Below, in pieces: positions 1 to 29,007 of a stretch of 34,425 nucleotides of DNA. Source of the DNA: Gemmatimonadales bacterium (GTDB lineage Bacteria > Gemmatimonadota > Gemmatimonadetes > Gemmatimonadales > GWC2-71-9). The stretch is taken from assembly GCA_036560625.1 (NCBI GenBank), contig DATBQV010000372.1, positions 1 to 34,425 on the forward strand, given 5' to 3'. Each line of letters opens with the position of its first letter. The first letter of the stretch is position 1. Below the pieces are notes generated by a model. The model saw only the letters and a list, made by a program, of their open reading frames with translations. It searched no databases and was not told the DNA's origin. The position numbers were made by a program, and so were the translations under genes.

Positions 1-44
1 TGCTGAAGCCGAGGGCGGCGGGCGTAGGAGAGGCTGGCATCAGG

Positions 45-135
45 TGAGAAGTGAGAAGTGAGAAGTGAGAAGTGAGAGGGGCGAGGGGTGGCACGCCGTC
101 CTTCTCACCTCTCACCTCTCACTTCTCACCTCTTG
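45..135. repeat. Long imperfect hairpin made of tandem heptanucleotide repeats. Left arm is GTGAGAA x4 plus GTGAGAG at 44-78. Right arm is TTCTCAC/CTCTCAC x4 at 102-129.
   Basis: Read directly. Position i pairs with 180-i from 45/135 to 83/97: 39 positions, 3 A.C mismatches and a few G.T pairs. The loop is 13 nt (84-96). The right arm overlaps the stop codon (112-114) and the last 7 codons of aguB on the minus strand. Confidence 0.85.
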
Positions 136-1023
136 GTCCAGGTATCGCTTGGTGAGGTCGCCGTAAGCGTCTATCCGCCGGTCTCGCAGGAACGGCCAAT
201 GCGTGCGGCTTGCGTCCACCTTGCCCAGGTCGCACGCGGCGATGAGGACCTCCTCGCCCTGGCCGGCCTTGGCGAGAACGCGACCGCCGGGGTCGGCGAC
301 GAAGCTCCCGCCCCAGAACTCGATACCGCCGGTGGCGGGGCCTTCATGGCCCACGCGATTCACCGCACAGACGTACACGCCATTCGCGATGGCGTGGCTT
401 CGCTGGATCGTCTCCCACGCGGCCTGCTGCTGGGCACCGTGCTCCGCCTTTTCGGCCGGCAACCAGCCGATCGCCGTCGGATAGAAGAGAATCTGCGCGC
501 CCGCGAGCGCGGTGAGGCGCGCGGCCTCCGGATACCATTGGTCCCAGCACACGAGCACGCCGATACGCCCGACCTTCGTGTCCCACGCCAGAAAGCCGAG
601 GTCGCCGGGGGTGAAGTAGAACTTCTCGTAGTACTGCGGGTCGTCGGGGATGTGCATCTTGCGGTACTTGCCGAGGTACCGGCCGTCGGCGTCGATGATC
701 GCCGCGGTGTTGTGATACAGCCCCTCGGCCCGTCGTTCGAAGAGTGATGCGACGATCACCACGCCGAGCTCAGCCGCGAGCTTTGACAGCGTGCTCGTGG
801 TCGGGCCCGGCACCTGTTCCGCGAGCGCGAAGTGGCCGTGGTCTTCCGTCTGGCAGAAGTACTGGCTGCGGAACAGCTCCTGAAGACACACCAGCTCGGC
901 GCCCTTGGCGTGCGCCTCGCGAACGCCCGCGACGGCCTTGCGCACGTTTTCGTCGGGGTCGAGCGTGCAGCGGCTCTGCACCAGGCCCAGCGTGACCGAT
1001 CGCGCGGGAGTCGAATTCGCCAT
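112..1023 (-). CDS. aguB: N-carbamoylputrescine amidase (carbon-nitrogen hydrolase / nitrilase superfamily)
   Basis: 303-aa ORF. It carries CN-hydrolase motifs: ELVCLQELF (catalytic Glu), YRKMHIP (Lys), VLVCWDQWYPE (catalytic Cys) and ILFYPTAIGW. The overall layout matches AguB proteins I remember. Confidence 0.9.
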   Translation of the reverse strand: MANSTPARSVTLGLVQSRCTLDPDENVRKAVAGVREAHAKGAELVCLQELFRSQYFCQTEDHGHFALAEQVPGPTTSTLSKLAAELGVVIVASLFERRAEGLYHNTAAIIDADGRYLGKYRKMHIPDDPQYYEKFYFTPGDLGFLAWDTKVGRIGVLVCWDQWYPEAARLTALAGAQILFYPTAIGWLPAEKAEHGAQQQAAWETIQRSHAIANGVYVCAVNRVGHEGPATGGIEFWGGSFVADPGGRVLAKAGQGEEVLIAACDLGKVDASRTHWPFLRDRRIDAYGDLTKRYLDQEVRSER

Positions 1024-1042
1024 GGGGCAAAGATAGCGACGG

Positions 1043-2977
1043 CTACGGCTCGGGGGGACCGAGCTCGAGGCGCGCCCGTCTTAGGGGAAGCGGCCACCGG
1101 AGCGTGACGGATTCTCCCTGGCACGTGCGGTCGAGGCCGCGCTCCGACTTGGCGACGGTCTCGATTGGAAACTTCCAGCGATCGGGCTCGGGGGTTCCGG
1201 TGAGGGCGAGCGGCCGGAAGAGCGAGAGCTCGACCGCGAAGACCGCGTGCTCCGCGTCCGCGGTGGCGGGCCACTCGTAGTCGACGGCCAGTCGGCCGTC
1301 GGCGGCCACGTGCACCGTCTTCCGGAGCGGCGCGCCCTCCGTGTGAAAGCTGAGCCGCACTTCGATGCCGCCCGCGGCATCGGCAATCTGAAAATGCGCC
1401 GGCGCCCGCGCCCAGGAGCGCAACGGGGCATACGCCCCGCGGGCATAGGCGTCGAGCGAGAGATCGCCGGGAAGGACGCGATCGACGAAGATCGCGCGGT
1501 CGTCCGCGTCCACAGGCGGCTGCTCCGCGAGACGCAAGCCCGTTTCGAGGTCGTGAATGCTCGGCGCACCGCCGCCGGCGCCGTCGTGCCCGCCGCCCTG
1601 CTGGAGGGCCGTCACGTGATAGGCCTCGAGTCTTCGGGTGAGCACGTTGGCGAAGTTGATGCCCGGCCCGAACAAGGTCAGGTCCTCGACCGCGCCGCCC
1701 CGCCACGGGCTCACGACCACGGAGCAGCGGTCGGAGTGCACCCAGATTTCGTCGTGGCCGTCGGCGTCGAGATCGAGCACCTCCCAGGTGAGGCCCTGGC
1801 CCGCGCGAAGGCGAGCCTCCGCATCGGCCAGGTTGCGCCAGATCGCCTCGCGAAGGTGCGGCAGATAGAGTCCGCCGAAGACGCCGTGCCAGTACGCGTC
1901 GTTGCACTGTGCCCGCCCGATCGCCCGGCGCGCCTCGGGCGGATCGCCGCGGCGGCGGCACAGCGTGGAGAGCACCTGCATCTTCTTGTGCATCCGATTC
2001 GATTCGGGGTACTTCGCGAGGAAGTTCCGCCAGTGCGACCCCCGGACGAGCGCGCCGTCCGGCCCGGCCATCCGTTCCTCGCCGAGATCCTGCTCGAGAC
2101 GGTTGAGGCGGAGCGCGGGCTCGGGCGGGAGCGACCACGCTTCCATCTCCCGATAGGATGCGGTCGGCAGGTAGGCGATGCCGGCGCTCGGCACCTCCGC
2201 CAGCGCCTGCCCCAGCGTGCTGAGTCGGACCTCGCCCCGCGCGACCAGCTCGCCGATCGTGTGCACGAACCGGTCGAGCCAGCCTTGCTCGTACACCCAC
2301 TCTCGCGTCCCCGGCCAACCGCCGAACTTCTCTCCATCGTCGGCGAGCACCGCGAGCTGATGGCCCGCGGCTCGAAGTCCCTGCAGGTACGACGCGGTCT
2401 CCTCGGGTGGCCGGAAGGGGATGAGATAGCGAAGCCGCTCGTCGATCGGAAAGAGCGCCACGCGCCTGGTGTCGGACTCGGTCCAGTACGGGGCGTGCAG
2501 CCGCTCCCGCGGGAACCCGGAGACCACGAAGTGCCGGTCGTCCACCAGCGCGTACCGGACCCCCGCGTCGGCCAGGTCGGCGGCCAGCTCCGGCTCCCAG
2601 ACCCGCTCCGTGAGCCAGAGGCCGGTGGCGTCCACCCCGAAGCGGCGTCGCAGGGCCTCGCGCATCCACTGGATCTGCTCGACACGGTCCCGACGGGGGA
2701 GCGACGCCAGCACCGGCTCATAGAATCCCGACAGCAACAGCTCGACCCGGCCCTCTGCCGCGAGCCCGCCGAGCCGATCCATCCAGGCCGGAGCGCGCGC
2801 ATCGAGCCAATCGAACAGCGGTCCGGAGACGTGGAGGACCATCGGGAGAAAGTCCGCGCCCGCGAGTCGGTCGAGCAGCGGTGCATAGACGTCATCGAGG
2901 TGCTGCTGGAAGACGTGGTCGAAATTTCCGACCGGCTGGTGGAGATGCAGGCCGAAGACGAAGCGGATCGGCGCCAT
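1043..2977 (-). CDS. GH57-family 4-alpha-glucanotransferase / alpha-amylase-like protein (about 644 aa)
   Basis: GH57 signatures: FGLHLHQPVGNF near the N-terminus, WLTERVWEP (nucleophile Glu region) and LADDGEKFGGWPGT (acid/base Asp region). The start is set at ATG 2977 (MAPIRFVFGLHLHQP), 1 nt after the upstream gene's stop (TGA 2979-2981). The ORF-track start at 3055 would overlap the upstream CDS by 77 nt. Confidence 0.85.
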   Translation of the reverse strand: MAPIRFVFGLHLHQPVGNFDHVFQQHLDDVYAPLLDRLAGADFLPMVLHVSGPLFDWLDARAPAWMDRLGGLAAEGRVELLLSGFYEPVLASLPRRDRVEQIQWMREALRRRFGVDATGLWLTERVWEPELAADLADAGVRYALVDDRHFVVSGFPRERLHAPYWTESDTRRVALFPIDERLRYLIPFRPPEETASYLQGLRAAGHQLAVLADDGEKFGGWPGTREWVYEQGWLDRFVHTIGELVARGEVRLSTLGQALAEVPSAGIAYLPTASYREMEAWSLPPEPALRLNRLEQDLGEERMAGPDGALVRGSHWRNFLAKYPESNRMHKKMQVLSTLCRRRGDPPEARRAIGRAQCNDAYWHGVFGGLYLPHLREAIWRNLADAEARLRAGQGLTWEVLDLDADGHDEIWVHSDRCSVVVSPWRGGAVEDLTLFGPGINFANVLTRRLEAYHVTALQQGGGHDGAGGGAPSIHDLETGLRLAEQPPVDADDRAIFVDRVLPGDLSLDAYARGAYAPLRSWARAPAHFQIADAAGGIEVRLSFHTEGAPLRKTVHVAADGRLAVDYEWPATADAEHAVFAVELSLFRPLALTGTPEPDRWKFPIETVAKSERGLDRTCQGESVTLRWPLPLRRARLELGPPEP

Positions 2978-2978
2978 G

Positions 2979-4667
2979 TCAGCCCAGGGCGAGACTGCGG
3001 GAGCCGCTGAGCGCGGCGGCGACCGCGGGCAGGATGTCCGGGAACAGGTGGTCACGCCGGCTCAGCGTGGCCGCGAGCGCCTGGCCCTCCGCGAGCGAAG
3101 TATCACTCCCCGGCGTCATCGCGGCGAGCAACTTCTCAGTCTCGACGCAATGCTGGGTGAACCGGCGTACGGCGTAGTCCGCGACAGCGCCCGTGGAAAT
3201 GATGAACTGCCAGTCGGACGACTGGGTGAGCAGGAGTGATCGCGCGGCCTGCGCCAGCACGGGCCGGGTCGACGGCTGCGCCATGGCGTCGCCGGCCAGG
3301 TCCCAGAAGCGTTGTTCGAGCGGCCAGATCCGCTCCCAGGTCCAGGCGGTCTCGGGCCCGAGCCACATGGAGTAATCCCCGTTGGCACCCCAGGTGCCCT
3401 CCGGGAGCCGGATCGCCACGCGGGGTGCGTGATCCGTCATGTGCCTGGAGCCCGTCACCGGGCGCACCCGGTCCTGCTGCGGCAGGGCCCGGTAGACGTC
3501 GCCCAGAAAATCCGGTCCTTCGAACCACCAGTGCCCGAAGAGCTCGGTGTCGAACGGAACGGCGATGACCCCGTCCGGGCCGGGCGAGGCGGTCTCGGCG
3601 ATCCGGCCGAGCAGCGCGGCGAAGTGCTGCGCATGGCCGTGCGCATGGCCGCGGGCGTCGGCCGGATCGTAGGGCTGCTTGCCGCCGAGATCGACTCCGT
3701 CGCCGGTGACGCGCCAGAGCTTGAGCCCGCCGGGCCAGCGGATCTTGTGGAACTCGAGATATTGGGCCGACCCGGGATATCCGTGATGCCGGCTCCAGAC
3801 CTGCATGGACGCGCGGGGATCGCGCACGTAGGCGGCGACGGCGTGGGTGCCTCGTGAGGGCGAGATGCGATACGCGCGGTACGGCGACCGGAGCGCATGC
3901 TGCGCGGCCAGCTCCTCGCCCTCGGCGGCTTCACGCGGGCCCACGAGCGGATCCCCGTACACGCCGAGCGGCCGCCCCGCCGCCGCGAGGTGGGCGTCCA
4001 CGAAGAAGAACGTGAACCCGGCGTCGGCCAGGTGCTCTTCGATGCCCCGGCGGACGCCGGCCTTGGGTGCCGTGGGCCAGGGCGCCCAGGGCCCCCGTGC
4101 CCGGTACGCGCACTCCGGCAGCCAGCAGCCGGCCGGAGCGCGGCCGAACAGCCGCCGGTGCTCGGCCACGCCGACGGCGAGCTGGAGCCGGATGCTCTCG
4201 TCCCGGGCGAGGAGCGGCAGGAAACCGTGGGTAGCCGCGGAACCGAGGATCTCGATCCGGCCGCGCGTCTCGAGGTCGCGGAATGCGCCCACGAGATCGG
4301 AGCCGGTAGCCCGGAAGAGGTCCCGGAGCCGCACGAACCGGTCACGCCAGTAGCGCACGAGCGGCAGGAGATGCGGCTCGGTCGCGGCGATGTCGAGCGC
4401 GGCCTGGTCACAGGCCTCGAGCCGCTGGGCGACGAACGCCTCCAGCTCCTCGACGAAGACGGGGCTCGCGAGCTGGTTGGCGAGCACCGGCGTGAAGCCG
4501 ATAGTGACGGGAGCCGGGACGTGCTCGTGGTCGAGCGCGCGCAGCGTCTCGAGCAGGGGCAGGTAGGTGTCGAGCGCGGCTTCGCTGAGCCAGTCGCTGC
4601 CGTGGGGCCAGCGCCCGTGGTTGAGGACCCACGGGAGGTGGCTGTGGAGCATCAGCACGAAGTCCAT
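2979..4667 (-). CDS. GH57-family 1,4-alpha-glucan branching enzyme
   Basis: 562 aa. MDFVLMLHSHLPWV at the N-terminus, CWLPECAY (nucleophile Glu) and PFDTELFGHWWFEG (acid/base Asp) are the hallmark motifs of Thermus/Thermococcus-type GH57 branching enzymes. Confidence 0.9.
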   Translation of the reverse strand: MDFVLMLHSHLPWVLNHGRWPHGSDWLSEAALDTYLPLLETLRALDHEHVPAPVTIGFTPVLANQLASPVFVEELEAFVAQRLEACDQAALDIAATEPHLLPLVRYWRDRFVRLRDLFRATGSDLVGAFRDLETRGRIEILGSAATHGFLPLLARDESIRLQLAVGVAEHRRLFGRAPAGCWLPECAYRARGPWAPWPTAPKAGVRRGIEEHLADAGFTFFFVDAHLAAAGRPLGVYGDPLVGPREAAEGEELAAQHALRSPYRAYRISPSRGTHAVAAYVRDPRASMQVWSRHHGYPGSAQYLEFHKIRWPGGLKLWRVTGDGVDLGGKQPYDPADARGHAHGHAQHFAALLGRIAETASPGPDGVIAVPFDTELFGHWWFEGPDFLGDVYRALPQQDRVRPVTGSRHMTDHAPRVAIRLPEGTWGANGDYSMWLGPETAWTWERIWPLEQRFWDLAGDAMAQPSTRPVLAQAARSLLLTQSSDWQFIISTGAVADYAVRRFTQHCVETEKLLAAMTPGSDTSLAEGQALAATLSRRDHLFPDILPAVAAALSGSRSLALG

Positions 4668-4678
4668 CTGGGCTCCGG

Positions 4679-6118
4679 TCAGGCGCGGGGCCCCCGGGCC
4701 ACGACGCGCCGATAGACGTCAATGTACGCGGAGACGGATCGTTCCCAACTGAAGTCCCGCGCCATGGCCTCGCGCATCATGCGCGTGCGGTCGGCGGGGC
4801 GTCCGTAGAGCGAAAGCGCCCGGAAGGCCGCCTCCTCGAGCGCCGTGGCCTCGTAGGCGTCGAACAGGAAGCCGGTCACGCCGTCCTCGATCGTGTCCGC
4901 CAGGCCGCCGACGCGCCGGGCGACCGGCAGTGAGCCGTATCGCTGGGCCCGCATTTGCGTGAGGCCGCACGGCTCGTAGAGGGAGGGCATGAGGAACAGG
5001 TCGACACCGGCCATGAGCCGATGCTCCAGCGGATCACGGAACGCGAGCTGTACGCCGATCCGCCCCGGTGCCGCGCGGGCGAGTCCCGCGAGGGCTTCCT
5101 CATAGCGCGGATCGCCGCTGCCGAGAAAGACGAACTGGGCATCTTCCTGGAGCAGCTGCCGGCTCTCGAGGATCAGGTCGAGGCCTTTCTGCTGGACCAG
5201 GCGCCCGGCCATGCCGAAGAGCGGCGTCGCGGGATTCTCGGGCAGCCCGTACGAGCGCTGCAACGCCGCCTTGCAGCGCTGCTTGCCCGCGAGGTCCTGC
5301 ACCCCGTAGCGCGCGAGAATCTGCGGATCGGTCGCGGGATCCCACACCGTCTGATCGATCCCGTTGACGATGCCCACCAGCCGGTCACCAAGCGCCTGGT
5401 ACATGTCGTGCAGCCCGAAGCCGCCGCCCGGCGTGCAGAGCTCGATCGCCTGCGTCGGGCTTACCGTGATGGCGCAGTCGGCGAACGCGAGTCCGCCCTT
5501 GAGGAAGTTCACCTTGCCGTACCATTCGAGCTGGTGCCAGTTGTACAGCTCGACCGGGAGCCCCAAGTCCAGCATGGCCTCCGGCCCGAAGTGACCCTGA
5601 TAGCCGGGATTGTGGACCGACAGGATGGCGAGCGCGTCCCGGGCCCACGGCTCCCGGGCCACGACGGTGCGCAGGTAAATGGGCGCCAGGGCGGTGTGCC
5701 AGTCGTGGGCGTGAAGGATCAACGGCCCGGACGCCACGCGCGGCAGGGCCAGGCAGGCGGCGAGCGCGAAGAAGGCGAAGCGCCGCGCGTTGTCGGGATA
5801 GTCCCGACCCTGCTCGCCGTAGATGCCGGCGCGGTTGAAGAAGTCGAGGTGCTCGATGAAGAACACCCGCGGACCGGACTGCGCGGCGCTGCCCGCGATC
5901 CGGAAGATCCGCGCTTCTTCGACCCGGGATCCCAACGGGACGCGGATCGGCGGACCGACGGGTTCCAGGTCGGGCGCTTCGTCGTGCACCGTGCGATAGA
6001 GCGGCAGGAGGACGGTGGCCGGGAGGCCGGACGCCTGCTGGAACGACGCGAGTCCCATCACGGCCTCGGCAAGCCCGCCGGTGCGCGCGTAGGGAAAGTA
6101 CTCGGCCGTGAGGTGCAC
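4679..6118 (-). CDS. glgA: Glycogen synthase (GT5, ADP-glucose type)
   Basis: Motifs: HLTAEYFPYARTGGLAEAV (K/R-T-GGL motif), HAHDWHTAL, and PSLYEPCGLTQM near the C-terminus. The start is uncertain. GTG at 6118 gives a typical N-terminus and no overlap with glgP. ATG at 6199 would add 27 Arg/Pro/Ser/Thr-rich residues and overlap glgP by 68 nt. Confidence 0.88.
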   Translation of the reverse strand: MHLTAEYFPYARTGGLAEAVMGLASFQQASGLPATVLLPLYRTVHDEAPDLEPVGPPIRVPLGSRVEEARIFRIAGSAAQSGPRVFFIEHLDFFNRAGIYGEQGRDYPDNARRFAFFALAACLALPRVASGPLILHAHDWHTALAPIYLRTVVAREPWARDALAILSVHNPGYQGHFGPEAMLDLGLPVELYNWHQLEWYGKVNFLKGGLAFADCAITVSPTQAIELCTPGGGFGLHDMYQALGDRLVGIVNGIDQTVWDPATDPQILARYGVQDLAGKQRCKAALQRSYGLPENPATPLFGMAGRLVQQKGLDLILESRQLLQEDAQFVFLGSGDPRYEEALAGLARAAPGRIGVQLAFRDPLEHRLMAGVDLFLMPSLYEPCGLTQMRAQRYGSLPVARRVGGLADTIEDGVTGFLFDAYEATALEEAAFRALSLYGRPADRTRMMREAMARDFSWERSVSAYIDVYRRVVARGPRA

Positions 6119-6131
6119 GACCGAGAGGGAA

Positions 6132-8285
6132 CTATCCGGTGGGTGGGTCGTCGGCGGACGACTCGCCCCGGAACGCGGGCGCGTAGTACTTCTGGACATA
6201 CTCTTGCATCATCCGCCGGGCCGTGAATCGCGCCCCGCCGAGCCGAATGGAATAGCGCATCCTTTCCACCCAGCCGAGCGGCACGCCCCGCGTATCCCGG
6301 TTGTAGTAGAGGGGGATCACCTGCTCCTCGAGCAGGTTGTAGAATCGCTCTGCATCTGCGGCGTCCGCGTCGTCGTGCTCACCCGCCTGGGGAATCGCCC
6401 AGCCGGACAATCCATCGTACGCCTCTTTCCACCACCCGTCCAGCGTGCCCAGGTGCGGCACGCCGTTGAGCGCGGCCTTCATCCCGCTCGTGCCGGACGC
6501 CTCGAGCGGCACGCGGGGAAGATTGAGCCACAGATCGGTGCCCTGGACCAGCACGTGGGCCAGGTGCATGTCGTAATCTTCGATAAAGGCCACGCGGCCC
6601 TCGAACGCCGGGTCGCGGGTGAACTGGTACACGCTCTGGAGCACTTCCTTGCCCGGATTATCCGCCGGATGCGCCTTGCCGGCGAAGACGATCTGCACCG
6701 GCCGCCACGGGTTGGTGAGCAGGCGACGCAGGCGCTCGAGGTCGCGGAAGATCAGGTTCGCGCGCTTGTACGTCGCGAAGCGGCGGGCGAACCCGATCGT
6801 CAGCGCGTGCGGGTCGAGCAGCGTCCCCGCGCCCACCACCTGGGCGGCCTCCTTGTGCTGGCCGGCGAACCGGTGGCGCGTATCCTCGCGGATGTAGTCG
6901 TGGAGGACGTCCTTGAGCTGGCCGTGCGCCTGCCACAGGGCCGCATGGTCGAGCGTGAGGACGTGATCCCACATCGCCACGTCGTCCTCGCGGTCGCTCC
7001 ACCCCGGTCCCATGTGCTGGTCGAGCAGTCCCATGATCGGCGCGGCCATCCACGTGGCCAGATGCACGCCGTTGGTGACGTGGCCCACCGGGATCGTTTC
7101 CCACGGCCGGTTGGGCCAGAGGTCGCGCCACAGGTGGCGGGAGACCTGACCGTGCTGGCGGGAGACGCCGTTCACCTTCGACGAACAGTGGATGGCGGTC
7201 ACGGTCATGTGGAAGCGATCGGGCAGGGCCGGATGGCGCCCCAGGTGGAAGAACGCGTTTCGATCCACGCCCATCTCCTCCCACACGGGGCCGATGCAGG
7301 CCGCGACGTCGTCGGCCGCGAAGGCATCGTGCCCGGCGGGCACCGGCGTGTGGGTCGTGAAGATGCTGCGGCTCCGCACCTCGCGGACGGCGTCGGTGAA
7401 CGACGTGCCCTTTGCCGTCAGCTCGCGGATGCGCTCGATCATCATGAACGCGGCGTGGCCTTCGTTGGCGTGCCACACGGCGGGGTTGATCCCGACCGCC
7501 CGCAACATCCGGACACCGCCGGCCCCCAGGATCCACTCCTGGCGCAAGCGCAGCTCCGGTCCGCCGGCGTACAGCTTGTTCATGAGCAGGCGGTCTTCCG
7601 GATGGTTCGCCTCGAGGTTGGTGTCGAGGAGATACACGGGGACCCGCCCCACCGTCATGCGCCACGCACGGAGCTGTACCGGTCGGCCGCCGGTCTCCAC
7701 CGTGGCGAGAAATGGCTCGCGGCCCGGGCCCGTCACCCGCTCGAGCGGGGTCCGGCTGACGTCGTACTCCTCGTCGCTGTCTTCCTGCCATCCGTCGAGC
7801 CGCAGCCGCTGGTCGAAGTAGCCCTTCATGTAGAAAAGCCCGACGCCGATCATCGGCACGCCGAGATCCGACGCCGACTTGCAGTGATCGCCGGCGAGCA
7901 CCCCGAGGCCGCCGGAGTAGATGGGTACCGAGGCGTGGAGCCCGAACTCGGCGCAGAAGTAGGCAAGGGGACCGTCGCTGTACCCGTCATACGCCCGATT
8001 GAACCAGGTATCCGGCGTCGTCAGGTCGTGGGTCATGCGGCCCATGACCTCGTCGTAGCGCCGGAGGAAATCGGTATCGCTCGCGCACGCGGCGATCCGC
8101 GCCGGATCGACGCGGCAGAGCAGGTCGATGGGATTGTGCCGGACGCGGTGCCAGAGCAGTGGGTCGATGGAGCGGAACAGCGTCCGCGCCTCCCGCGTCC
8201 AGCTCCACCAGAGGTTCATGACCATCGAGGACAGGCCCTCGATGCGGGCGGGCAGGTACGGAACGCGGGATTGGGCCGTAAGCAT
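6132..8285 (-). CDS. glgP: Alpha-glucan (glycogen/maltodextrin) phosphorylase, GT35
   Basis: Motifs: NLWWSWTREA near the N-terminus, YSGGLGVLAGDH, and EASGTSGMKAALNG (PLP-Lys region). The start is set at ATG 8285 (MLTAQSRV...). The extra 23 codons of the ORF-track start (8354) are encoded by the heptad-repeat hairpin. Confidence 0.9.
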   Translation of the reverse strand: MLTAQSRVPYLPARIEGLSSMVMNLWWSWTREARTLFRSIDPLLWHRVRHNPIDLLCRVDPARIAACASDTDFLRRYDEVMGRMTHDLTTPDTWFNRAYDGYSDGPLAYFCAEFGLHASVPIYSGGLGVLAGDHCKSASDLGVPMIGVGLFYMKGYFDQRLRLDGWQEDSDEEYDVSRTPLERVTGPGREPFLATVETGGRPVQLRAWRMTVGRVPVYLLDTNLEANHPEDRLLMNKLYAGGPELRLRQEWILGAGGVRMLRAVGINPAVWHANEGHAAFMMIERIRELTAKGTSFTDAVREVRSRSIFTTHTPVPAGHDAFAADDVAACIGPVWEEMGVDRNAFFHLGRHPALPDRFHMTVTAIHCSSKVNGVSRQHGQVSRHLWRDLWPNRPWETIPVGHVTNGVHLATWMAAPIMGLLDQHMGPGWSDREDDVAMWDHVLTLDHAALWQAHGQLKDVLHDYIREDTRHRFAGQHKEAAQVVGAGTLLDPHALTIGFARRFATYKRANLIFRDLERLRRLLTNPWRPVQIVFAGKAHPADNPGKEVLQSVYQFTRDPAFEGRVAFIEDYDMHLAHVLVQGTDLWLNLPRVPLEASGTSGMKAALNGVPHLGTLDGWWKEAYDGLSGWAIPQAGEHDDADAADAERFYNLLEEQVIPLYYNRDTRGVPLGWVERMRYSIRLGGARFTARRMMQEYVQKYYAPAFRGESSADDPPTG

Positions 8286-8308
8286 GAAGGAAGAAGGTAA
8301 TCCGACCG

Positions 8309-8393
8309 GGTGAACAGTGAACGGTAAACAGTGAACGGGAGTTTCATGCGTCATCGCAAACGCCCGTTCACCGTTGACTGTTCACCGTTCACC
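8309..8393. repeat. Heptanucleotide-repeat hairpin, GTGAAC flavour. Left arm is GTGAACA GTGAACG GTAAACA GTGAACG GG. Right arm is CC CGTTCAC CGTTGAC TGTTCAC CGTTCAC.
   Basis: Read directly. Position i pairs with 16702-i from 8309/8393 to 8339/8363: 31 positions, 3 mismatches and 1 G.T. The 23-nt loop can fold further (GTTT 8341-8344 with AAAC 8358-8361; GCG 8348-8350 with CGC 8355-8357). It lies 5 nt downstream of the ettA stop (8398-8400) on the minus strand. Confidence 0.85.
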
Positions 8394-8397
8394 GCAG

Positions 8398-10074
<1,677 letters not shown>

Positions 10075-10169
10075 AGGGGGCCAAAGATACACTGCGGAGC
10101 ACCGAACGGGGACCGCTCGACGACCTACAATTCTGTGGCCCGACTCGATCAGACCCTGGGGGAGGCAGA

Positions 10170-11648
10170 GTGAGAGGCCGCCGCGTGGTGGTGGTCGGCG
10201 CAGGGATCGGTGGTCTCGCGGCCGCGATCCGGCTCGCGCATGCCGGCTATCAGGTGACCGTGGTCGAGCAACACGACGTCCCGGGCGGTCGCGCGGGCGT
10301 GTGGCGATCGGCGGGCTACACGTTCGATACCGGACCGTCGATGGTGATGATGCCGGACTGCTGGGACCGGCTCTTTCACGACGTTGGGCGACGGCGCGAG
10401 GACTACATCGACCTGGTGCAGTGCGATCCCTGCTATCGGCTGCACTTCGCCGACGGGTCCACGCTCGAAATGACCAGCCGACTCGACCAGCTGGTGACGA
10501 ACTTCGAGCGGATCGAGCCGGGGTGCGGTCCCCGCGCGCTCGAGTGGCTGGCCTTTACGGGGCAGCTCTATGATCGCGGCATCGAATTCATCCGCCGGGA
10601 TATGCATCGCCCGCTGGCGATGCTGCGCGTGGGCGGGCTCGGGCTGCGCTATGGGGCGGCCGCGCTCGGCGACCTCCAAGCGCTGGCGGCCCGGTTCTTC
10701 CGCGACGAACGGCTGCGGCAGGCGGTCACGTTCCAGTCCCTCTATCTCGGGCTCTCGCCGTTCCGCTCGCTCGCCATCTACGGCCTCCTCGCGCATGCAG
10801 AGGTCGCGGGCGGGATCTACTATCCCATGGGCGGGATGCACCAGCTGGCGGCGGCGCTCGAGCGCCTCGGCGGCGAGCTGGGCGTGACCTTTCACTACGG
10901 CACACCCGTCACGACCCTGCATCGGGTCGGCCGTCGGGTCGCGGCCGCGCGCCTGGCCGACGGCCGGGAGCTGCCGGCGGACGTGGTGGTGGCGAACGCC
11001 GACCTGCCGTATACCTACCAGGCGTTGCTGGGCGAGCCCTATCCGGGCATCGAGCGGAAGGAATTCAGCTGCTCGGTGGTGCTGCTCTCCCTCGGCGTGA
11101 ACCGAACGTACCCGGGGCTGTTGCATCACAATCTGGCGGTCTCGCGTGACCTGGCCGCCGCGTGCCGGATGCTCTGTGACGAGCACCGGATGCCGGACGA
11201 TCCGCCATTCTACGTTGTCGCGCCGACGCGGACCGATCCCGGGCGGGCGCCGCCCGGCTGCGAGAGCCTGTTCGTGCTGGTGCTGGCGCCGAGTCAGAAT
11301 CCCGCGAACCCGACCGACTGGGAAACAGAAGGGCCGCTGGTGGAGCAGCGAACGATCGAACGGCTGGAGGCGCTCGCCTGTCCCGATCTCCGCCGGCACA
11401 TTGTGATCCGGCGGCGCGTGACGCCGGCCGATTTCACCAGTCAGTTCGGCAATCTTCGCGGCGAGGCGTTCGGCCTCTCCCATGGGCTACGCCAGATCGG
11501 CTATTTCCGCCCGCACAACCGTCACCGCCGCTACCGCAATCTCTACTTCGTGGGCCAGAGCACCCACCCCGGCTGCGGCCTCCCGATGGTGCTCATCTCC
11601 GCGGAGCTCGCCGCGCGCCGCATCACGCGCGAGCTGCCGGCACGCTGA
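10170..11648 (+). CDS. crtI: Phytoene desaturase-family (CrtI-type) carotenoid desaturase. A CrtD/CrtN-type specificity cannot be excluded.
   Basis: The N-terminal FAD fold is [43 protein letters not shown] is present, as is the C-terminal motif FRPHNR...[18 protein letters not shown]. These are collinear with CrtI as I remember it. The start codon is GTG. Confidence 0.85.
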
Positions 11649-11669
11649 GGTGTCCGGCTACAACGACAA

Positions 11670-11700
11670 AGGGCGCTCCGGCGGGAGCGCCCTCTTGTCT
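11670..11700. terminator. Bidirectional intrinsic-terminator-like hairpin between convergent genes
   Basis: AGGGCGCTCC (11670-11679), loop GGCG, GGAGCGCCCT (11684-11693): a perfect 10-bp GC-rich stem. It is flanked by CTCTTGTCT on the + strand and by TTTGTCGTTG on the - strand reading. It sits between the crtI stop (11648) and the SWIB gene stop (11718). Confidence 0.75.
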
Positions 11701-24712: not shown

Positions 24713-24750
24713 GAAGCCCTCCGATCCATCGGAGGGCTTCGTTTTTCTCT
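24713..24750 (+). terminator. Rho-independent terminator
   Basis: GAAGCCCTCCGA (24713-24724), loop TCCA, TCGGAGGGCTTC (24729-24740): a perfect 12-bp stem followed by GTTTTTCTCT. It lies 23 nt after the sigma gene stop and just before the convergent acnA stop. Confidence 0.85.
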
Positions 24751-28011: not shown

Positions 28012-28338
28012 GTGATCGTTGGCCGGCGCTACTGGATTCTGATCTGGTACGGGATCCTGCTCCTGGGCATCCTGGGCCTGCTCGCCTCGGTGCACTGGGG
28101 TCGCCGCACCCATTGGCGGAACCTCGACGAAGTGCTCCGCGCCGTCGGCACCATCCTGGTGTCGGTCGGCATGCTGGTGCTGTTGTACCCCCTGCCGTGG
28201 TTGTACGCAGGGCTCCTGGGCGAAGGGCTGCTGGGCGTGGCACTCGTCGCGTTCGTGGCGGCGTTCATCCTGGGACGCCGTGCTGAGCGCGAGCGGGAGC
28301 AGCGCAGGTCCGGCGAGGTGGTCCCTCCCCCCGAGTAG
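28012..28338 (+). CDS. Hypothetical small membrane protein (about 3 TM segments)
   Basis: GTG 28012 lies 6 nt after GAGG. GC3 bias is strong in this frame. Hydrophobic segments: WILIWYGILLLGILGLLA, VGTILVSVGMLVLLY and LLGVALVAFVAAFIL. I recognise no family. Confidence 0.55.
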   Translation: MIVGRRYWILIWYGILLLGILGLLASVHWGRRTHWRNLDEVLRAVGTILVSVGMLVLLYPLPWLYAGLLGEGLLGVALVAFVAAFILGRRAEREREQRRSGEVVPPPE

Positions 28339-28393
28339 GCCGCTCTTGCGCCGGCCGGGACGGCGCCCCACTGTACCATTGGGGGAGGGAGCC

Positions 28394-28897
28394 ATGGCTC
28401 AGTCCAACATCTCCACCGGCGACGAAGGAACCTTCGCCGGTGCGATCGGCGCCGGGTGCGTTGCACTCTGGTTCTTCGTCATCGATCTCATTCAGGGTCA
28501 CCCCCTCCGCACGCCCAGCGTCCTCGGCCAGGTGCTGCTCTTCGGCCGGGAGCATCCCAATCTCGGCCAGGTGGACTTCAGCGCCGTCGTGGCCTACACC
28601 GCCGTGCACTTCGCGGTGTTCCTGGCGTTCGGGATCGGCTTGGTCGCGCTCATCCGCTGGGCGGCACGCGAATCCGCGGTGCGCTACGCGGTGCTCCAGG
28701 TGTTTCTCGTCTTCGAGGTGCTCTTCTACGGGCTGCTCTCGCTTGTGTCGGAGACGACCCGCGAGCTGTTCCCCTTCTGGACCGTGCTGGGCGCGAACAC
28801 CCTCGCGGCGGTGGTGATGGGCCTCTACCTCTGGCGGCAGCATCCGGAGTTCCGGCAGCTGCTGCGCGAGACGCCGCTGGGGGCAGCCCCCCGGTAG
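28394..28897 (+). CDS. Hypothetical membrane protein (about 4 TM segments)
   Basis: ATG 28394 is preceded by GGGGGAGGGA. The frame is GC3-rich and there are four hydrophobic stretches. I recognise no family. The stop TAG (28895-28897) lies 5 nt before the third heptad-repeat hairpin. Confidence 0.65.
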   Translation: MAQSNISTGDEGTFAGAIGAGCVALWFFVIDLIQGHPLRTPSVLGQVLLFGREHPNLGQVDFSAVVAYTAVHFAVFLAFGIGLVALIRWAARESAVRYAVLQVFLVFEVLFYGLLSLVSETTRELFPFWTVLGANTLAAVVMGLYLWRQHPEFRQLLRETPLGAAPR

Positions 28898-28902
28898 ACA
28901 AC

Positions 28903-28969
28903 GTGAGAGGTGAGAGGTAAGAGGTGAGAGGGAGGAACGCCCTCTTACTTCTTACCTCTCACCTCTTAC
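28903..28969. repeat. Heptanucleotide-repeat hairpin. Left arm is GTGAGAG GTGAGAG GTAAGAG GTGAGAG. Right arm is CTCTTAC TTCTTAC CTCTCAC CTCTTAC.
   Basis: Read directly. Position i pairs with 57872-i from 28903/28969 to 28931/28941: 29 consecutive pairs on the + strand (26 Watson-Crick plus 3 G.T) and no mismatches. The loop is 9 nt (28932-28940). Confidence 0.88.
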
Positions 28970-29007
28970 CCGTTTAGCTTCCTCCCTCTCTCTCGCCGGG
29001 CGGGGTC

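Follow-up and report, generated by a model that had tools for sequence, protein, structure and literature searches.

We analysed a 34,425-nucleotide (nt) stretch of Gemmatimonadales DNA (assembly GCA_036560625.1, contig DATBQV010000372.1, positions 1 to 34,425; G+C = 69%), referred to below as the window, which carries three long hairpins built from tandem heptanucleotide units, each at the 3' end of a gene. All three sites follow a common design, in which four to five GTRARNR units are followed by a GC-rich turn and then by reverse-complement units. The first hairpin lies between aguB and aguA on the minus strand, and one of its repeat units supplies the stop codon of aguB. The hairpins and the genes flanking the first of them are as follows, L-numbers here and below denoting related loci.

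45-135: site 1 hairpin, made of a five-unit array, a turn and a reverse-complement array; the five plus-strand units are GTGAGAA four times and GTGAGAG.
44-78: first array of site 1, reading GTGAGAA four times and GTGAGAG on the plus strand; on the gene-sense (minus) strand it is the 3' arm, CTCTCAC followed by TTCTCAC four times.
79-101: turn of site 1, GC-rich (GGGCGAGGGGTGGCACGCCGTCC), adding a few pairs atop the stem and differing from the turn in L002 and L234.
102-133: complementary array of site 1, reading TTCTCAC CTCTCAC CTCTCAC TTCTCAC CTCT on the plus strand.
8309-8393: site 2 hairpin, with arms at 8310-8337 (GTGAACA GTGAACG GTAAACA GTGAACG) and 8365-8392 and the turn at 8338-8364.
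28903-28969: site 3 hairpin, with arms at 28903-28930 (GTGAGAG GTGAGAG GTAAGAG GTGAGAG) and 28942-28969 and the turn at 28931-28941.
112-1023, minus strand: aguB, encoding an N-carbamoylputrescine amidase-like CN hydrolase of 303 aa (Pfam PF00795; NCBIfam TIGR03381).
133-135, minus strand: CAA (Gln) codon at the ancestral stop position of aguB, as judged from orthologous intergenic sequences and homolog C-termini.
1-40, minus strand: start of aguA (agmatine deiminase), with the ATG at 40-38; the gene runs off the window.

That the three sites belong to one family, as the original prediction held from the letters of the window, is borne out by a pattern search: three tandem GTRARMR units (at most two mismatches) are matched 16 times in the window, every time at one of the three sites, and 0 times in 100 dinucleotide shuffles. 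The formula GTRARMR, said to fit all units, describes them overall, but the minus-strand unit GTCAACG of site 2 does not fit. With Tandem Repeats Finder, arrays of period 7 are located at 44-77 and 103-133, 8310-8336 and 8364-8394, and 28903-28931 and 28941-28970, with 3.9-4.9 copies per arm. An inverted-repeat search of the three sites gives arms of 37-39 nt at site 1 (82-86% complementary), 36 nt at site 2 (86%) and 30 nt at site 3 (90%), with an inter-arm distance of 2-28 nt that varies with register; because the arms are tandem repeats, several pairing registers, 7 nt apart, are possible. RNA folding of both strands gives -45 to -67 kcal/mol at the three sites; relative to shuffles, the z-scores are -4.8 to -10.7. 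Only the heptamer is common to the three copies, whose turns, flanks and arm lengths vary, and their GTGAGAR and GTGAACR units are free of any run of three G.

The predicted association with stop codons and gene 3' ends also holds, the stop codon lying 0, 4 and 5 nt away at sites 1, 2 and 3, and the next start 3, 23 and ~38 nt away. As had been noted, U-tracts are lacking: no T-run is present at any of the three sites, and a hairpin-plus-T-run scan flags none of them, yet flags the terminator at 24713-24740. The sites are not canonical intrinsic terminators. Rfam covariance models at the gathering score gave 0 matches across the whole window. Ordinary terminator-like hairpins, with a GC-rich stem and a T/C-rich tail, occur at 24713-24750 and ~11668-11697; that near 11668 has an A-rich left flank too, so it looks bidirectional. 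Judged by these two hairpins, the genome also employs conventional hairpins after genes.

The clearest record of how such an array relates to a stop codon is found at aguB. AguB scores 314 bits against TIGR03381, under the 410-bit equivalog cut-off, and we use the name because of the family resemblance and the adjacent agmatine deiminase gene. On the minus strand, positions 102-133 form the 5' arm, GAG GTGAGAA GTGAGAG GTGAGAG GTGAGAA, which codes for EVRSER and a stop; the working stop is the TGA at 112-114, within the third unit. The right arm had been credited with the stop codon and the last seven residues, QEVRSER. This is correct for the TGA and for EVRSER, but not for the Q, whose codon (CAA, 133-135) is the mutated former stop and no repeat unit. 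The codon at this position is TAG in L002 and L231-L233, CAG in L234 and L001, and CAA in the window. The DNA of L002 and L231-L233 reads GAC TAG CAA GTGAGAA, that is, an intact stop and immediately thereafter the same array. In L234 the sequence is GAC CAG GAA GTAAGAA GTGAGAC GTGA..., and the in-frame stop is reached at ACG TGA; in the window it is GAC CAA GAG GTGAGAA GTGAGAG GTGA..., and the stop is reached at AGG TGA.

A comparison of AguB C-termini, which the original prediction had recommended, delimits the extension. Among the best 120 homologs, named Gemmatimonadales or Gemmatimonadota by the source databases, 117 finish in ...RY(L/R/I)D (two of these with an extra D), and the seven-residue tail of the QEVSER/T type is found only in the window and its three closest relatives. 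From these sequences we conclude that the array predates the loss of the stop: TAG mutated at its first base and is now CAG or CAA, and the TGA of the array took over and the protein gained seven residues. The element had been proposed either to have invaded aguB or to have been recruited as its 3' end; since relatives keep TAG directly before the same array, it did not invade the gene, and it was the stop that decayed in front of an array already in place. Independently of this, the AguB of L167 also extends into an array, one of GTGAGGA units.

On the other side of the hairpin, the aguA ATG (40-38) lies 3 nt past the last repeat unit, and the hairpin fills the entire aguB-aguA gap. We take the first ATG as the probable start, since the conserved N-terminal motif P..LGF/YRMPAEW lies ahead of the second Met. 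The aguA starts in L002 and L231 are called right at the end of the arm. We asked whether the start codon generally adjoins the 3' arm, in a shunt-like coupling of the two genes, and rejected the idea: it is true at aguB-aguA, and elsewhere the downstream gaps are usually 6-70 nt.

The genes near sites 1 and 2 are all on the minus strand (aguB, two GH57 genes, glgA, alpha-glucan phosphorylase and ABC-F), and a PIG-L family gene lies 38 nt beyond site 3. The genes adjoining sites 2 and 3 are:

8398-10092, minus strand: ABC-F gene scoring as EttA; 4 nt separate its stop (8398-8400) from the base of site 2.
6132-8285, minus strand: alpha-glucan phosphorylase; the likely start, ATG 8285-8283, is 23 nt past the site 2 hairpin, and L002 uses the equivalent ATG.
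28280-28897, plus strand: unnamed gene; its TAG (28895-28897) is 5 nt before site 3, and codon-position G+C of 0.69/0.50/0.88 supports the frame.

A longer open reading frame (ORF) for the phosphorylase, extending to 8354, would start within the turn of site 2 and read through one arm (8286-8354); we take it as an artefact of ORF listing. The true start of the unnamed gene is probably downstream of 28280. The region 1043-8285 constitutes a glycogen-type cluster, with two GH57 genes (one 4-alpha-glucanotransferase-like, the other a branching enzyme), glgA and alpha-glucan phosphorylase, and aguB-aguA next to it on the same strand; the cluster is syntenic across all close relatives.

At the orthologous sites of relatives, the repeats prove to be in rapid turnover. 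L231, L232 and L233, which come from different samples, code for identical AguB proteins yet carry 5/7, 4/8 and 4/9 units in the two arms, and L002 carries 4/7; the turn is common to these four loci except for a one-base insertion in L232. Unit number thus changes fast. The unit type changes as well: the aguB-aguA hairpin is made of GTGAGAR in the window, L234, L002 and L231-L233, and of GTGAACR, the unit type of site 2 in the window, in L235, L236 and L152. Five lineages out of some ten have this position filled, at AguB identities as low as 80%, which amounts to long occupation of the aguB-aguA gap with a changing unit type. L153 retains a remnant with one arm only. The L001 contig (7160-7209) stops 16 nt beyond the first arm of the aguB-aguA hairpin, in bases that resemble an aguA start; either the second arm has been deleted there, or the assembly is broken or chimeric at the inverted repeat. 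The concern that the repeats are themselves assembly artefacts can be dismissed, with orthologous copies in at least seven independent assemblies (L002, L231-L236, also L152). In L235 and L152 the copies after aguB are followed by CTTTT(T).

Both the window and L235 carry site 2; the two orthologous copies have unrelated turns, and the changes between them are uncompensated. Between filled and empty alleles of this site there is no target-site duplication, and at the stop of the empty allele stands CTGAACA, which differs from a unit by one mismatch. We considered growth of arrays out of native stop codons, and rejected it as a general origin: bases around stops are weak unit matches at best, the CTGAACA of the empty site 2 excepted. 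Two L235 copies have the left flank TGAACTGCG in common, plus a turn beginning GGGGG(T)CTCCG, and the site 2 copy of the window and the post-aguB copy of L152 both hold the odd units GTAAACA and GTTGACT. In L239 (85% AguB identity), plain GC-rich palindromes (1309-1335 and 10889-10925) stand at both post-stop positions that heptamer hairpins hold in the window; one of them, GACGGGCAGACGTCTGCCCGTC, lies 3 nt beyond the EttA stop, where the window has site 2. A different hairpin, of CGGAAA-type motifs, is seen downstream of aguB in L178 (~5600-5720) and L183 (~960-1090); the L178 hairpin reads ...ACGGAAATAACGGAACAGACGGAAGG..., pairing with TTCCGT..., and the post-aguB position is here taken by another repeat family.

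Arrays of this type are widespread. We scanned one genome per species for four GTGA-type units and obtained at least 119 stretches, where ~4 would be expected by chance (our own arithmetic, assuming uniform base composition). Among the matches listed are nine Gemmatimonadota, seven Pyrinomonadaceae and many Bacteroidota, together with Planctomycetota, Verrucomicrobiota, Cyanobacteria, Chloroflexota, Nitrospirota, Armatimonadota, Campylobacterota, Bacillota, several proteobacterial classes and one genome of the candidate phyla radiation. Cultured strains with such arrays include Parabacteroides sp. ASD2025, Terrimonas ferruginea DSM 30193, Cnuella takakiae RG1-1, Mesorhizobium hawassense AC99b and Winogradskyella costae. 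Viral contigs also carry GTGA-type arrays. One of these contigs, L010, has three similar GTGAGAA hairpins within 4 kb (473-4330), with common sequence beyond the heptamers (…TTCTCTCTTCTCATTTCTCAATTCAATCTTCCCA…), which look like a dispersed repeat in a phage genome. The metagenome scan covered mostly distant aguB loci; in 802 kb fetched for aguB and not for repeats, period 7 is favoured, with 38 arrays versus 15, 24, 6 and 2 for periods 5, 6, 8 and 9.

The GTRA strand of the array contains one TGA or TAA per unit, and because 7 is no multiple of 3, three units shut all three reading frames. The claim that a period of 7 is incompatible with coding accordingly applies to the GTRA strand, with stops in three frames, but not to the complementary strand, which is open for translation. 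This asymmetry has a counterpart in the position of the arrays relative to genes. For the 118 GTGA-type arrays with both flanks available, a reverse-complement arm lies at most 120 nt downstream in 34 and upstream in 1, with none in 83 (hairpins with both arms matching the pattern enter this count twice). An ORF of at least 100 codons ends -12 to +30 nt from the base of an arm, on that arm's GTGA strand, in 38 of 55 hairpins, as against 15.5% of random positions; ORF ends are found on both sides in 12 of the 55 (random positions, 0.7%), with a typical gap of ~4 nt. Unpaired (solo) arrays behave likewise, as computed separately for low-G+C loci and with a codon-position filter for high-G+C loci. 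Of their flush gene ends (at most 12 nt away or inside the array), 26 are on the GTGA strand and 1 is on the TCAC strand; for 17 of those 26 the array itself contains the stop. Within 100 nt of stops the sense orientation is still ahead, 32 versus 9. Stop codons supplied by the array, as at aguB, are therefore common in the GTGA-type class.

Within hairpins, the 3' arm mirrors the succession of units in the 5' arm more closely than a permuted order does in 29 cases and worse in 2, although this test is biased towards the observed pairing, which had been picked as the best. The few pairs of reversed polarity (L101, L102 and L239:20100-20192) sit in divergent intergenic regions, according to crude or tool-made gene calls. 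Other heptamers also form pairs. In L239 (20100-20192) and L169 (9327-9417) a GCTATCG / CGATAGC pair has the opposite polarity, with the stop-containing arm second, and the L239 pair is between divergently transcribed genes. L193, at 42% G+C, has a very high repeat density, with composite arrays (GAGTTAT beside GTGAGTG) at 2918-2989, 4159-4276, 4760-4822 and 7579-7680, some of them inverted pairs.

Three further ideas about the unit itself were rejected. The R at unit position 3 might have been kept as TGA and TAA both are stops; in arrays not selected by pattern, GTAA (12) equals GTCA (12), and position 3 is simply the most variable. Pairing of GGTGA with the 3' tail of 16S rRNA is not indicated, as the base before GTGA is A more often than G (136 versus 84, in a biased set). 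Nor are stop-containing units strongly favoured among arrays generally, with only a modest excess of 144 of 191 over 116 expected from shuffled units, and some pseudo-replication in that count.

We favour, with about even confidence, the view that the sites are slippage-driven repeat hairpins placed after stop codons, similar in role to the repetitive extragenic palindromes (REPs) of enterobacteria. Each site is an inverted pair of simple-sequence arrays, (GTRARNR)4-5, a short GC-rich turn and (YNYTYAC)4-9, set flush on the upstream stop. The arrays would gain and lose units by replication slippage. Only a stop-containing array could adjoin or replace a stop codon without much lengthening the protein, and a partner arm could be placed only downstream of the gene, which would put the GTGA arm first and the TCAC arm second; we infer that the polarity of 34 versus 1 would follow from a primary array that is flush and sense-oriented. 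In the transcript, the arms may fold into a ~30-37 bp stem starting 0-5 nt past the stop. Such a stem could block 3' exonucleases or be a site of processing that gives neighbouring cistrons separate fates, as enterobacterial REPs do, and a terminating ribosome would have to melt it in part.

A number of results weigh against this view, most of them concerning a directional role in RNA. The original prediction called for the strands to be compared for G·U pairs as opposed to A·C mismatches, and within the window the gene strand is indeed favoured, 7 versus 1; among 30 hairpins between co-directional genes, the count on the transcribed strand is 35 G·U versus 42 A·C, with no bias. Because the bias vanishes in the larger sample, the preference in the window is probably due to chance. 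Register-free folding of co-directional hairpins with RNAfold favours the sense strand in 22 and the antisense strand in 14 (p = 0.24), and in L234, the closest relative of site 1, the antisense fold is better by 11 kcal/mol. Of 36 related hairpins between co-directional genes, only 4 have a T-run of at least four after the stem, no different from an A-run before it. Arm length is likewise unbiased with respect to transcription, the 3' arm being longer in 13 versus 8, although at aguB the arms have 4-5 versus 7-9 units. These strand symmetries fit a DNA-level palindrome or a by-product equally as well as an RNA element. The mismatch, folding and flank tests have little power, since the stems are so long that one mismatch costs little folding energy and may be nearly neutral. 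The elements are also dispensable: the site 1 hairpin is absent in L151, L154, L155, L237 and L239, and site 2 is absent in the close relatives L002, L231 and L232, where 21 nt separate the genes. Lastly, the gene calls in the wide sample are crude, being based on ORF length and codon-position G+C.

The main rival, which we regard as possible though not probable, is that the hairpins are functionless by-products: arrays arising by slippage, with inverted copies made by template switching, and tolerated only just past stops in the orientation that closes all frames. It would accommodate the hypervariable unit number, the presence and absence differences between close relatives, the different unit types at one site, the uncompensated differences between the orthologous site 2 copies of the window and L235, and the complete strand symmetry of mismatches, folding energy and flanks. 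Slippage is moreover the published suggestion for the excess of heptamers, as summarised in later papers (Mrazek 2007, as cited in PMC4692102 and PMC4679880). Against it, the arms remain complementary and mirror each other's unit order, and five of roughly ten lineages, to 80% AguB identity, have site 1 filled. A mere filter of tolerance would permit antisense arrays slightly farther off, but the sense orientation leads by 32 to 9 within 100 nt, and the plain hairpins at the same post-stop positions elsewhere hint that a structure is wanted there.

The opposite extreme, a pan-bacterial, orientation-specific post-stop module of GTGA arrays that functions in ending gene expression, we consider unlikely. 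In that case the sense arm would act as a stop cassette in all three frames for ribosomes that had read through or shifted frame; at the foot of the stem would lie the stop of one gene and, at aguB-aguA, the start of the next; and the unit number, which slippage resets, would adjust termination, the stalling or recycling of ribosomes, and the coupling of cistrons. Such a module would explain the orientation of 26 versus 1, the spacing of 0-5 nt and the persistence at one site.

It is quite improbable that the sites act as non-canonical bidirectional terminators or attenuators, in which a purine/A-rich 5' arm and a pyrimidine/U-rich 3' arm would replace the A- and U-tracts around a GC-rich core. 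Their position at gene 3' ends, including the exact filling of gaps between convergent genes, the GC-rich core at the turn, and the CTTTT(T) after the aguB copies of L235 and L152 would suit such a role, as would the same layout (A/G-rich left, GC stem, T/C-rich right) in the ordinary terminators of the window at ~11668-11697 and 24713-24750. But T-runs of four or more accompany few of the related hairpins and 0 of the 3 window copies, and the sense strand has no pairing advantage. Furthermore, site 1 splits aguB from aguA, two steps of one pathway, and efficient termination there would silence aguA unless it had its own promoter.

Insertion of small mobile elements beside stops, whether MITE- (miniature inverted-repeat transposable element), REPIN- or IS200/IS605-derived, is very unlikely. 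The clean contrast of filled with empty alleles at site 2, the left flank TGAACTGCG and turn start GGGGG(T)CTCCG common to the L235 copies, the odd units GTAAACA and GTTGACT common to site 2 and the L152 copy, and the three similar copies inside 4 kb of the viral contig L010 are what such elements would leave, but there is no target-site duplication, the three window copies lack conserved termini or a conserved turn and are not near-identical, unit number and type vary continuously, and no transposase is linked in any locus read. With CTGAACA present at the empty site, the alleles could as well be due to growth in place or to deletion, and the data speak against a typical MITE. Least probable of all is that the heptamers, arranged head to head, are each bound by one molecule of a DNA- or RNA-binding protein, in the manner of cold-shock proteins (CspB binds heptamers with one protein per unit; PMC4679880): a G-T-x-A core is kept while positions 5-7 vary, and recurs across many phyla, but its conservation is partly a product of the search pattern, unit types differ between sites of one genome, many genomes use unrelated heptamers, and there is no candidate protein.

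If hairpins of this kind, as in the slippage-driven, REP-like reading that we favour, do affect mRNA ends or translation termination, then slippage of unit number would be a simple, heritable dial of expression in many phyla. Over-representation of heptamer repeats in bacterial genomes has been reported since 2007; what the window offers is a clear family of heptamer hairpins in a little-studied phylum and, at aguB, a natural experiment in which a lost stop was rescued within seven codons by the array. The rule suggested by the comparisons can be tested in any genome: stop-containing arrays should sit flush past stops in the sense orientation, and a hairpin should arise once a partner array is added downstream. 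There are also consequences for annotation, in that gene callers set starts and stops inside the repeats (e.g., the start at 8354) and metagenome contigs break at them.

Heptamer repeats of several kinds have been described, and the original suggestion that the paired-arm architecture was new to the literature must be withdrawn. The architecture is that of the GGGAATC arrays of Xanthomonas, of which two genomes contain 186 and 183, mostly of four units and 89-93% intergenic, with a mean distance of 28 nt from the end of the upstream ORF versus 160 nt to the next ORF (Rehm et al. 2015, PMC4692102). In 70-75 cases per genome (about 40% inverted pairs) two convergent arrays occur with a possible stem-loop; the arrays are transcribed, and their length and sequence vary between close species (PMC4692102). 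The hairpins of the window resemble these in their tandem 7-nt units, about four per array, in their convergent pairs, and in being nearer to the upstream ORF end than to the next ORF. They differ in the unit: that of Xanthomonas is G-rich (GGGAATC / GGGANTN), forms G-quadruplexes and has no stop triplet, whereas the GTRARNR units have no G-tracts and one stop triplet each, and they lie 0-5 nt from a stop or on it, in another phylum.

Long simple sequence repeats of heptanucleotides are, as summarised in PMC4692102 and PMC4679880, over-represented, mostly intergenic and sporadic across phyla, with slippage as the proposed origin (Mrazek 2007). Our arrays agree with this class in that period 7 is over-represented, the arrays are longer than chance allows, and copy number varies between close relatives; the class is a statistical one, and the summaries of it give neither a paired-arm architecture nor a rule of stop-codon orientation. 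Heptamers that overlap stops and close all three frames have likewise been reported. The TAACTGA direct repeats of Beggiatoaceae, cyanobacteria and Bacteroidetes comprise 2-6 units, are mostly intergenic and close all frames, and 13 of the arrays overlap the stop codon of the upstream gene (MacGregor 2015, PMC4679880). Similar to ours in having a heptamer with stop triplets, in closing three frames and in overlapping upstream stops, they differ in the unit and in being almost all direct repeats just upstream of starts, with one inverted pair in 170 sets. A third group is that of the short tandemly repeated repetitive (STRR) heptamers of heterocystous cyanobacteria, which Mazel et al. reportedly described in 1990 with the units CCCCAGT, TTGGTCA and CAACAGT; STRRs are also mentioned in PMC4692102. 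STRRs, too, are tandem intergenic heptamers with several unit types per genome, but their units differ, the host here is Gemmatimonadales-like, and STRRs are not known to have been described as paired arms on stops.

Two further systems resemble the hairpins in position. Bidirectional intrinsic terminators have a GC-rich stem that is purine/A-rich on the left and pyrimidine/T-rich on the right, and they lie after stops and between convergent genes, as do the hairpins; unlike these, the hairpins lack a U-tract, are built from repeats, and have stems three to four times longer. The REP, BIME and REPIN elements of proteobacteria are extragenic palindromes that occur in large numbers at the 3' ends of genes and between cistrons, forming hairpins without U-tracts, and REPINs are inverted doublets. 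The likeness lies in hairpins without a U-tract at gene 3' ends, near stops. In contrast to variable-copy 7-mers, REP units are 20-40 nt long, have a conserved head (GTAG or similar), are copied whole and are linked to RAYT transposases, and we saw no transposase linked to the heptamer hairpins in any locus read. About half of the REPs of E. coli can stall ribosomes just before the termination codon, as summarised in PMC12306157 (citing Liang et al. 2015).

The heptamer hairpins described here thus belong to the known class of heptamer repeats and are closest to the inverted arrays of Xanthomonas, with a new unit and in a new phylum. What this analysis adds to that class is the spread of the GTGA type over phyla, the rule of orientation with respect to stop codons, the replacement of a stop codon by the array, and the variation in unit number among loci with identical AguB.

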